Below the pieces are notes generated by a model. The model saw only the letters and a list, made by a program, of their open reading frames with translations. It was not told the origin of the DNA and searched no databases. 64,000 nucleotides of DNA from Escherichia coli (GTDB lineage: Bacteria; Pseudomonadota; Gammaproteobacteria; Enterobacterales; Enterobacteriaceae): the NCBI RefSeq assembly GCF_041886205.1, contig NZ_CP169029.1; one strand, 5' to 3'. Position numbers and translations under genes: made by a program. Position 1 is the stretch's first letter. Each line of letters opens with the position of its first letter. Below are positions 13,414 through 17,142 of the stretch, piece after piece.

Positions 13414-13718
13414 CGTTTGCCTGTCTCCGTTGTTGGAGTGAACATATCAAAAACAGGCAATTACACAATTTTAATTACAGTCTCTTCGGTTATTAACGAA
13501 ACTCAACAATAGCGCCTGGTTGTGAAACCAGTTTAACCATTTGAAGCTTAAACTCATTTGAAAATGATCTGCGGGGTTTTGCAGATAATGTTTTCTGTTC
13601 CATAACAGGTGTCCACTAGTTTTGAAGGTGGGCACCTACGTTACCAATACTGGCTTAATGTGTATTAGCTCAGACCTGATCTGACAGTTACCGGTTATTT
13701 ATACAGGTATCTGTCAGA

Positions 13719-14804
13719 TTACATCTGGCTTAAATTTTTCTCGACCCAGATGCGTTTTCCATCAAGTAACGTTTCCATTGGCGTCCGCCCATTGCACATT
13801 TTTCCCTGATGGGTTCGCTCATTATTATAGTGAGCCAGCCATTCATCAAGATCCGACTGTAATGTATCAAGATCGCCGTACAGTTTTTTACGGAACGTTA
13901 CCTGATAAAATTCGTTCAGGATTGTTTTATGGAACCGCTCGCAGATGCCGTTGGTCTGCGGGGACATCGCCTTTGTTTTCGTGTGTTCTATATCGTTTAT
14001 TGCCAGATAAAGCTGATAATCATGCTGCTCTACTTTGCCACAGTACTCCGTGCCTCTGTCGGTCAGTATTCTCAGCATCGGCAGGCCCTGAGACGCATAA
14101 AACGGCAGTACACGATCATTCAGTAAGTCAGCTGCGGTAATCGGTGTTTTGGTGACGTAAAGCTTACAGTGAGCCACTTTCGAGTACGTATCAACGAACG
14201 TCTGCTGATAAATACGCCCGACACCTTTCAGGTTGCCTACATAGAACGTGTCCTGCGAACCCAGATATCCAGGATGAGCCGTTTCGATTTCGCCACAGGC
14301 CTCGTCATCACTGGCTTTACGCTCCAGTGCTGCGATCTGGCTGTCAGTTAGCTCAATGCCATCACGGGCTACTTTTTCTTCCAGTGCTTTCAGACGTTTT
14401 TTGAAATTCTCAAGGTTATGGCGTAACAAGACAGAACGGACACCACTGCCGGAGATAAAAACGCCCTGTTTACGCAGCTCGTTGCTGGTCCGGTGCTGAC
14501 CGTGTGCCGGGAAAGCGACGGCGTAATCAACAACAGCCTGTTCAGTTGCCTCATCGGTACGGTTCTTAAGGTTAGGAGCGCGGCGACTACGATTAATCAG
14601 CGCATCCACACCGCCTTCATCGACCAGTTCGCGGTAACGATAAAACGTATCACGCGAAACGCCCATGATTTTACAGACTTTTGATTCGTTGCTGAGTTCT
14701 TCCGCCAGATTGAGCAAACCGGCTTTGTGTTTGATAACGGGATTGGTAGTATGAAGCATGAGAGTTACCTCGTGTTTTGTATAAGGATTCGACACCCATA
14801 TCAA
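13719..14804 (-). CDS. Transposase, HTH + DDE (rve) integrase core, IS481-family-like
   Basis: 361-aa single ORF with N-terminal HTH and integrase-core motifs. Confidence 0.7.
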   Translation of the reverse strand: MIWVSNPYTKHEVTLMLHTTNPVIKHKAGLLNLAEELSNESKVCKIMGVSRDTFYRYRELVDEGGVDALINRSRRAPNLKNRTDEATEQAVVDYAVAFPAHGQHRTSNELRKQGVFISGSGVRSVLLRHNLENFKKRLKALEEKVARDGIELTDSQIAALERKASDDEACGEIETAHPGYLGSQDTFYVGNLKGVGRIYQQTFVDTYSKVAHCKLYVTKTPITAADLLNDRVLPFYASQGLPMLRILTDRGTEYCGKVEQHDYQLYLAINDIEHTKTKAMSPQTNGICERFHKTILNEFYQVTFRKKLYGDLDTLQSDLDEWLAHYNNERTHQGKMCNGRTPMETLLDGKRIWVEKNLSQM

Positions 14805-14936
14805 AACCGGTAACTCTCAACCTTTCAAGGCTCAGTGTTAGCGCCAATGATATAAGACAGTAATTCACCATTTGAATTGTCCGCTCCACCCAACATGTTG
14901 TTTCCTTGAGGTTCTCACACCAGAAAGGACATCAAC

Positions 14937-16109
14937 ATGCTGAACAGAGAGGACTTTTACATGATAAAGCAAATGCGCAAGCAAGGTGCGTACATTGTCG
15001 ATATTGCGACTCAGGTGGGTTGCTCTGAGCGTACTGTCAGACGGTATCTTAAATACCCTGAGCCACCGGCCAGAAAAACGCGCCACAAAATGGCCAAACT
15101 GAAGCCGTTCATGGACTACATCGACACACGTCTGGCCGAGAACGTCTGGAATGGTGAGGTGATCCTCGCAGAAATCAAAGCGATGGGTTACACCGGTGGG
15201 CGCTCCATGCTGCGCTACTACATCCAACCCAAACGTAAAATGCGTCTGTCGAAGAAAACGGTCCGCTTCGAAACCCAGCCGGGATACCAGCTCCAGCACG
15301 ACTGGGGCGAAGTTGAGGTGGAGGTCGCCGGGCAACAGTGCAAAGTTAACTTCGCGGTTAATACACTGGGGTTCTCCCGTCGTTTCCATGTCTTCGCCGC
15401 TCCAAAGCAGGATGCTGAAAACACCTACGAGTCGCTGGTTCGTGCCTTCCGATACTTCGGTGGCAGTGTGAAAACGGTGCTGGTTGATAACCAGAAAGCG
15501 GCGGTGCTGAAGAATAACAACGGGAAAGTGGTGTTCAACTCTGGGTTCCTGTTACTGGCCGACCACTATGACTTCCTGCCACGGGCCTGCCGTCCGCGCA
15601 GGGCCAGAACCAAAGGTAAGGTGGAGCGGATGGTGAAATATCTCAAGGAGAACTTCTTCGTCCGCTACCGCAGGTTCGACAGCTTCGCCCATGTTAACCA
15701 GCAGTTGGAGCAGTGGATGGCTGATGTGGCTGACAAACGGGAGCTTCGCCAGTTCAGACAAACACCAGGACAACGCTTCGCACTCGAGCAGGAGCATCTG
15801 CAGCCGTTGCCTGATACGGACTTCGATACCAGCTACTTCGACATCCGCCATGTGTCCTGGGACAGCTATATCGAGGTTGGCGGCAATCGTTACAGTGTTC
15901 CCGAAACGCTGTGTGGTCAGCCAGTCTCGATACGCATATCGCTGGATGACGAGTTGCGGATCTACAGTAATGAGCAACAAGTGGCATCACACCGGCTATG
16001 TTCAGCATCATCTGGCTGGCAAACGGTCCCAAAACACCATGCCCCGTTGTGGCAGCAGGTCAGCATGGTGGAGCATCGTCCCCTGAGTGCCTATGAGGAG
16101 TTGCTGTGA
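14937..16109 (+). CDS. istA: IS21-family transposase IstA
   Basis: 390 aa; HTH + DDE domain. Confidence 0.85.
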
Positions 16110-16906
16110 TGCATGAACTTGAAGCGCTGTTGAGTCGGTTAAAAATGGAACACCTGAGCTACCACGTTGAAAGCTTGTTAGAACAGGCAGCTAAAAAAGA
16201 GCTGAACTACCGGGAGTTCCTGTGTATGGCGCTGCAACAGGAATGGAACGGCAGACATCAGCGCGGAATGGAATCCCGGCTGAAACAGGCTCGTCTGCCG
16301 TGGGTGAAAACGCTGGAGCAGTTCGACTTCAGCTTCCAGCCCGGTATCGATCGTAAAGTCGTCCGGGAACTGGCCGGTCTGGCGTTCGTTGAGCGCTGCG
16401 AGAACGTGATCCTGCTGGGGCCACCTGGAGTGGGTAAAACCCATCTGGCTGTGGCTCTCGGCGTGAAAGCAGCAGATGCAGGCCATCGGGTGTTGTCCAT
16501 GCCGCTGGACAGGCTGGTAGCGACGTTGATGAAAGCGAAGCAGGAAAACCGGCTGGAGCGCCAGCTACAACAACTGAGTTATGCGCGGGTGTTGATCCTG
16601 GACGAAATAGGCTATCTGCCGATGAACAGAGAGGAAGCCAGTCTGTTCTTCCGCTTGCTGAATCGCCGGTATGAAAAAGCGAGCATTATCCTGACCTCAA
16701 ACAAAGGCTTCGCAGACTGGGGAGAGATGTTCGGCGATAACGTACTGGCAACAGCGATCCTGGATCGGCTGCTGCACCACTCAACTACAGTGAATATAAA
16801 GGGAGAAAGTTACCGGTTGAAGGAAAAACGCAAAGCCGGGGTGTTGTCTAAAAACGCAACGCCAATCAGTGATGATGAAATGGCGGAAAGCGGACAACAG
16901 AAGTGA
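16106..16906 (+). CDS. istB: IS21-family helper ATPase IstB
   Basis: 266 aa; Walker [10 protein letters not shown], Walker B LILDEIGY; 4-bp overlap with istA. Confidence 0.85.
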
Positions 16907-17142
16907 TCAAACAGCGGACATTAAAAATGGCGAAACGGTCATAAATCCTGGCGTTGACATCAGTGTCAGATCAAGTCGCGACTAATACACTTAATGGCTA
17001 CATACGGCGGTCAGTTTACGCTTACGAAAGGACGAACTTTTCTAAGGGCTTTTTTCCTTAAGTGGGGCTTGGATATTCGGAGTGGATTGTATTTAAAACG
17101 AATATCCAAGCAATCAAACTCTAGTCTACAAAACACATAAAT

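Follow-up and report, generated by a model that had tools for sequence, protein, structure and literature searches.

Nested IS21-family and IS481-family insertion sequences in an IS66-family end remnant within an Escherichia coli genomic island

Elements of the IS481 family are single-gene DDE elements related to IS3, and in the IS21 family the IstA DDE transposase works with the IstB AAA+ ATPase, a helper in target selection. The closest counterpart of the outer element described here is a 1201-bp IS481-family element carried on the Escherichia coli 042 plasmid pAA and on E. albertii plasmids, with 97-99% nucleotide identity over 1201 bp. These copies and the copy reported here have in common the terminal repeats, a single 346-aa transposase with HTH and DDE domains, and a 7-bp duplication, whereas in the latter a 2.1-kb IS21 insertion interrupts the element 26 bp from one end, and its transposase carries four private substitutions. 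For the inner element, the IS21 elements of enterobacterial plasmids (IstA WP_048213832.1 and IstB WP_048213831.1, in Klebsiella, Citrobacter, and E. coli) and the common E. coli IS21-like copies show the same istA/istB layout, and they agree with it in the overlapping stop and start codons, the termini, the subterminal repeats, the 4-bp duplication, and a length of 2124-2131 bp. The flanks of the locus reproduce the left end and the tnpA start of IS682, an IS66-family element, at 93-95%, but only a remnant is present, the rest being cut off at position 13512, where the remnant adjoins a partial IS256-family ISEc39. A further relative of the 1201-bp element resides on the Salmonella plasmid pSLT as PSLT044, which has been described as an IS481-family tnpA (PMC11047700). 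A literature search for ISfinder names of these elements found none.

The window, the 64,000-nucleotide stretch of E. coli DNA that was analyzed, contains two insertion sequences, one inside the other, whose arrangement very probably arose when they transposed one after the other into what was left of an older IS (Table 1). Under this reading, the 1201-bp IS481-family element would have entered an IS66-family (IS682-like) end, at 29 bp from its tip, duplicating CTTAATG, and a 2124-bp IS21-family element would subsequently have inserted at the inner edge of the upstream IS481 terminal repeat, duplicating TCAG. The locus has defined boundaries, two target duplications, and three intact reading frames; its IS66-family target is found empty elsewhere, and the outer element is restored exactly when the insert is removed. 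The first-pass annotation had placed the structure at 13654-16995 and had described inverted repeats of ~27 bp between identical CTTAATG copies, enclosing two different transposition modules (a 361-aa HTH+DDE frame on the minus strand and istA/istB on the plus strand). The repeats were recovered at 13661-13687 and 16964-16989, the Pfam domains agree with both modules, and the left coordinate stands, but the right copy of CTTAATG ends at 16996, one base further to the right.

Table 1. Features of the nested insertion sequences and of their IS66-family target (window coordinates).
Feature	Coordinates	Strand	Description or basis
IS66-family (IS682-like) left-end remnant, left part of target	13512-13660	-	includes the first 31 tnpA codons (13512-13603)
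CTTAATG, 7-bp IS481 target-site duplication, left copy	13654-13660		sequence; single copy at the empty site
IS481-family element, main body	13661-14835	-	1175 of 1201 bp; end-to-end match to intact copies after IS21 removal
IS481 terminal inverted repeat distal to the transposase start	13661-13687		inverted repeat scan
IS481-family transposase gene	13719-14759	-	346 aa, intact, HTH and DDE integrase core
TCAG, 4-bp IS21 target-site duplication, left copy	14832-14835		sequence
Complete IS21-family insertion sequence	14836-16959	+	2124 bp; termini TGTTAGCGCC...GGCGTTGACA; same limits in plasmid relatives at 89-93%
Left subterminal repeat of the IS21-like element	14864-14885		inverted relative to both right-end repeats (inverted pairs I8, I9)
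istA, IS21-family transposase	14937-16109	+	390 aa; NF033546 282.7 bits vs cut-off 160; Pfam rve, Mu-transpos_C_2
istB, AAA+ helper ATPase	16109-16906	+	265 aa; NF038214 294.5 bits vs cut-off 200; Pfam IstB_IS21
Two tandem 24-bp right subterminal repeats of the IS21-like element	16889-16912, 16913-16936		direct repeat family D6; pairs I8/I9
TCAG, 4-bp IS21 target-site duplication, right copy	16960-16963		sequence
Detached 26-bp IS481 end, terminal inverted repeat proximal to the transposase start	16964-16989	-	contiguous with 14835 in 10/10 intact copies
CTTAATG, 7-bp IS481 target-site duplication, right copy	16990-16996		sequence
Right part of target, last 29 bp of the IS66-family end	16997-17025	-	finishes ...ACGCTTAC; contiguous with 13660 in the IS682 end and EcPF14

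The inner element is placed in the IS21 family by the family models for istA and istB, by 5'-TG...CA-3' termini with subterminal repeats, by a duplication within the 4-8 bp range, and by a length within ~2-2.5 kb; the start of istB overlaps the stop of istA (TGATG, 16107-16111). Relatives matching exactly 14836-16959 were found in E. coli and in plasmids of Enterobacter, Klebsiella, Citrobacter, and Salmonella. The nine IS21-like copies compared start with TGT(T/C)AGCGCC, end with GGCGTTGACA, and measure 2124-2131 bp, and 4-bp duplications flank eight of the nine. The nearest relative is 97.7% identical in IstA and 98.1% in IstB, while at the DNA level no copy in the collections searched exceeds about 93% identity to the element, the bovine E. 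coli strain ZYB39 excepted, and the common E. coli form ("IS21-like element IS21 family") reaches about 87%. Judged by these comparisons, the copy may represent a separate isoform, and by its sequence it looks fully functional. The termini of the relatives also bear on a reverse nesting, in which an IS481 element would have inserted in the left end of a 3.3-kb IS21 element, so that the outer repeats and CTTAATG would belong to IS21. The outer repeats do start with TGT, like IS21 ends, and a 15-nt inverted pair (I12, 13682-13696 and 14805-14819) resembled the ends of an inner IS481 element; however, all nine IS21-like copies, eight of them with 4-bp duplications, end at the positions corresponding to 14836 and 16959 of the window, and both outer repeats stand 1.2 kb apart in ten uninterrupted IS481 copies. 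The true IS21 ends of the relatives and the uninterrupted IS481 copies together refute the reverse nesting, to which we attach a negligible probability.

The transposase of the outer element is one uninterrupted 346-aa frame without the programmed frameshift of the IS3 type and contains the Pfam domains HTH_29, rve, and rve_3. The open reading frame on the minus strand spans 361 aa from a TTG at 14804, and the RefSeq start is the ATG at 14759, which gives the 346-aa product annotated in ZYB39 as WP_000903434.1. This protein scored 289.1 bits against NCBIfam NF033577 (transpos_IS481; cut-off 224) and only 78.6 bits against the IS3 model (cut-off 160). It differs from the transposases of three intact copies at 4-7 residues, and E25, V28, L111, and V339 are private to the window copy with respect to all three. 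The family model, the restored length of 1201 bp (about 1.0-1.3 kb being expected) with terminal repeats, a duplication of fixed length, and the single frame place the outer element in the IS481 family.

The terminal repeats of the outer element are imperfect, 26-27 bp long, and start with TGTATTAG; between the CTTAATG copies, the sequence starts with TGTATTAGCTCAGACCTGATCTGACAG and ends with the imperfect reverse complement. The repeat tool reported them as pair I1, with arms at 13660-13686 and 16964-16990 (27 nt, 81% complementary) that take in one flanking base, and the same scan turned up an unrelated pair, I2, that is equally long, at 78%. Judged only by these two measures, length and identity, the IS481 repeat is no better than this chance pair, as might be expected if a truncated IS481 element merely lay beside an unrelated IS21 insertion and if 16964-16989 and the second CTTAATG were coincidental. 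The repeat is nevertheless considered real, because it stands at the termini of ten independent copies, because six of these have 7-bp duplications, and because the empty site holds a single CTTAATG. Against adjacent unrelated insertions stand three observations, namely that, once the insert is taken out, the 1201-bp sequence matches without gaps across the junction, that the joined flanks correspond to an IS66 end known as contiguous sequence with a single CTTAATG, and that 7-bp duplications recur at six other copies. Restoration, empty site, and recurring duplications together refute this explanation, and we regard it as having almost no chance of being correct.

The restoration was obtained by deleting 14836-16963, that is, the IS21 element and one TCAG, which leaves the 1201-bp IS481 element. 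Uninterrupted copies of this element, which the first-pass annotation had proposed to seek in other genomes, are present at full length in 76 E. coli genomes and 119 plasmids (plasmid hosts E. coli, E. albertii, and Edwardsiella), annotated in RefSeq as "IS481 family transposase". The restored element aligned with five uninterrupted copies at 98.7-99.1% identity, gap-free and straight across the excision point, and with all ten fetched copies at 97.1-99.1%. A single TCAG occupies the IS21 insertion position in the intact copies, and the pair of termini is identical in 10/10 independent intact copies. Perfect 7-bp duplications were found at six of the ten (CATTAAA, CCTTAAT, TGTAAAT, CATTATA, CCTTATT, and ACTTATG), indicating that duplication of 7 bp at an AT-rich, TTA-containing site is a property of the 1201-bp element. 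IS481 itself makes a 6-bp duplication; 7 bp is one base more and inside the range of the family.

The target of the outer element was reconstructed by joining 13512-13660 to 16997-17029, which gave one contiguous match to many IS66-family ends at 93-95%, and the joined outer flanks with a single CTTAATG exist as contiguous sequence in many E. coli genomes. The uninterrupted IS682 left end (...ACTGGCTTAATGGCTACATACGG...) has a single CTTAATG; in E. coli O103 RM8385, where it is annotated, it reads ...ACTGGCTTAATGGCTACATACGGCGGTCAGTTTACGCTTAC and is followed by unrelated DNA. The homologous island of EcPF14 carries a diverged TCTAATG beside the nucleosidase gene that also neighbors the target in the window. 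The target terminus, ...CGCTTAC, corresponds on the opposite strand to GTAAGCG, the usual end of IS66 elements. The single CTTAATG at the empty IS66 site indicates that the 7-mers of the window are a real target duplication, and two given 7-mers would match by chance with a probability of 4^-7, about 6e-5. The nest lies in an IS-rich tRNA-Phe genomic island that also contains defence and contact-dependent-inhibition genes.

The junction between the IS66 target and the IS481 element reads ...ACTGGCTTAATG/TGTATTAG, and the IS481/IS21 junctions read CAAGGCTCAG/TGTTAGCGCC on the left and GGCGTTGACA/TCAGTGTCAG on the right. The IS21 element, oriented opposite to the IS481 transposase gene, abuts the inner edge of the 26-bp terminal repeat, 76 bp upstream of the ATG annotated for the transposase. 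The central proposal of the first-pass annotation, an IS21-type insertion into the upstream region of an IS481-like element between target-derived 7-mers, is thus borne out by this insertion point, by family scores above the NCBIfam cut-offs, by inner boundaries that match those of relatives, by the gap-free restoration, and by the 7-mer counts in the IS682 end and at the intact copies. The upstream end of IS481 is now 2.1 kb from its transposase gene, and the sequence upstream of -76 has been replaced. The outer element is probably impaired by the insert; its ends and transposase frame are intact, and it could therefore in principle still be mobilized as a 3.3-kb unit. Two further possibilities at the insertion point were considered and rejected. 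A hybrid promoter was suggested by a perfect TTGACA at the IS21 right end, but no usable -10 hexamer was seen by eye at 16-18 nt, and a promoter scan gave 2 sites against 3.0 expected in shuffled sequence, nothing above chance. Targeting of its own end by IS21 was suggested by a TGTCAG situated 4 bp from the insert, a hexamer similar to the end of L002, the common E. coli relative (TGTCAG), but 0/8 other insertion sites were alike, and the resemblance was treated as a coincidence.

Of 5,426 complete E. coli genomes, only that of ZYB39 contained the whole composite, at the same site and with 100% identity to the window over 13600-17050; RefSeq labels its genes as IS481 family transposase, istA, and istB. 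This distribution is relevant to an alternative history in which the 3.3-kb IS481::IS21 unit formed elsewhere and arrived whole by means of the IS481 transposase and the outer repeats, so that the 7-bp duplication would date from its arrival. Both outer repeats and the IS481 transposase frame are intact, the window sequence alone fits either order of events, and an IS481 element at this site without IS21 was not found in the 5,426 E. coli genomes, all of which would suit such an arrival; a partial extension in PEC41, considered as this IS481-only intermediate, proved to lie at a different site. In contrast, there is no second copy of the composite besides the one at the same site in ZYB39, none was present in 72,556 plasmids, and the 24-nt composite junction had no match among 100,044 species-representative genomes or in JGI metagenomes. 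One mobile element would be expected to have copies at several sites, with a separate duplication at each; the composite occupies one site, common to the window and ZYB39, and there is no sign of the 3.3-kb unit being a named element or moving in one piece. We therefore consider arrival of a pre-formed unit very unlikely and favor successive insertion at the site. Because no IS481-only intermediate was found there, the order of events rests on parsimony, by which IS481 first and IS21 second would be the simplest history. A slim chance is also given to a more far-reaching interpretation, that the locus represents either a functional 3.3-kb IS481::IS21 compound element with IS21 as its cargo, or an unnamed isoform of the IS21-like element newly entered in E. 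coli.

Collectively, the structure is an ordinary nested insertion of an already known kind and is not novel, and neither the IS481 nor the IS21 element departs from the established patterns of its family. Both target duplications are preserved, indicating that the region has not been rearranged since. The traffic of insertion sequences in the island differs between near-identical strains, so that the insertions can be used as strain markers. As a textbook case of transposition events in succession, which placed an IS21-like element in an IS481-like element in an IS66-like end, the locus is of value mainly for annotation. In practical terms, insertion of the 1201-bp IS481 element duplicates 7 bp, at AT-rich sites that contain TTA, and insertion of the IS21-like variant duplicates 4 bp; this variant may merit its own ISfinder name.

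The island in the window and its counterpart in the bovine E. coli strain ZYB39 differ in IS content: an ISCro1 copy and an IS100 are present in ZYB39 at points corresponding to window positions of about 5791-5798 and about 37059-37064, respectively, but are absent from the window there, and the island around these two points is otherwise near-identical (99.9-100%). Conversely, comparison with ZYB39 revealed that this strain lacks the ISCro1-like element located right of the IS481::IS21 composite in the window, a copy that shares 98.6% identity with the ISCro1 of ZYB39. The ISCro1-like element, which is bounded by an 8-bp duplication, disrupts the 3' end of a gene annotated in ZYB39 as 5'-methylthioadenosine/S-adenosylhomocysteine nucleosidase, and a CBASS cyclase operon adjoins this gene.

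Features of the island in the window
Feature	Window position	Details
Reverse transcriptase gene pair	about 8003-9294	160-aa hypothetical protein, then 270-aa protein with reverse transcriptase domain; ZYB39 locus L003 2404-3695
IS66-family element	11565-12273	tnpA/tnpB
ISEc39 (IS256 family), partial	12277-13511	
Hairpin	13671-13727	25 nt, 80% paired, 7-nt loop
ISCro1-like IS66-family element	17235-19933	tnpA, tnpB, tnpC
8-bp duplication	17227-17234 and 19934-19941	TTTTGTGC; around ISCro1-like element
tRNA-Phe gene	44524-44599	island boundary marker

To the left of the composite, the right end of the partial ISEc39 abuts the IS66 remnant targeted by the IS481 element, and its left part is cut by another IS66-family element. 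At least five IS families are piled up in 8 kb in this part of the island. Between this IS cluster and a cdiA-CT/cdiI module lies a gene pair whose second product may be a defence-type reverse transcriptase. Within the composite, a hairpin overlaps both the end of the IS481 element and the stop codon of its transposase gene, and its plus strand includes a stem resembling that of a terminator, with TTAAATTTTT (13713-13729) after it. The hairpin could act as a putative block to outside transcription entering the element; the IS481 copies are too similar to one another for covariation in it to be assessed. At the right junction, a near-palindrome (16954-16969) is formed by the IS21-like right end TTGACA, the 4-bp TCAG and TGTCAG of the IS481 repeat. 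This arrangement recalls abutted IS21 ends, an interpretation that was rejected because no similar pattern occurs at eight other insertion sites of IS21-like relatives, and the near-palindrome is therefore regarded as a coincidence.

At the island boundary, an integrase is annotated beside the tRNA-Phe gene in ZYB39. Rightwards of position 44647, the match between the window and the ZYB39 flank (dicD/dsbD side) ends, so the window and ZYB39 seem to carry the same island in different chromosomal contexts.
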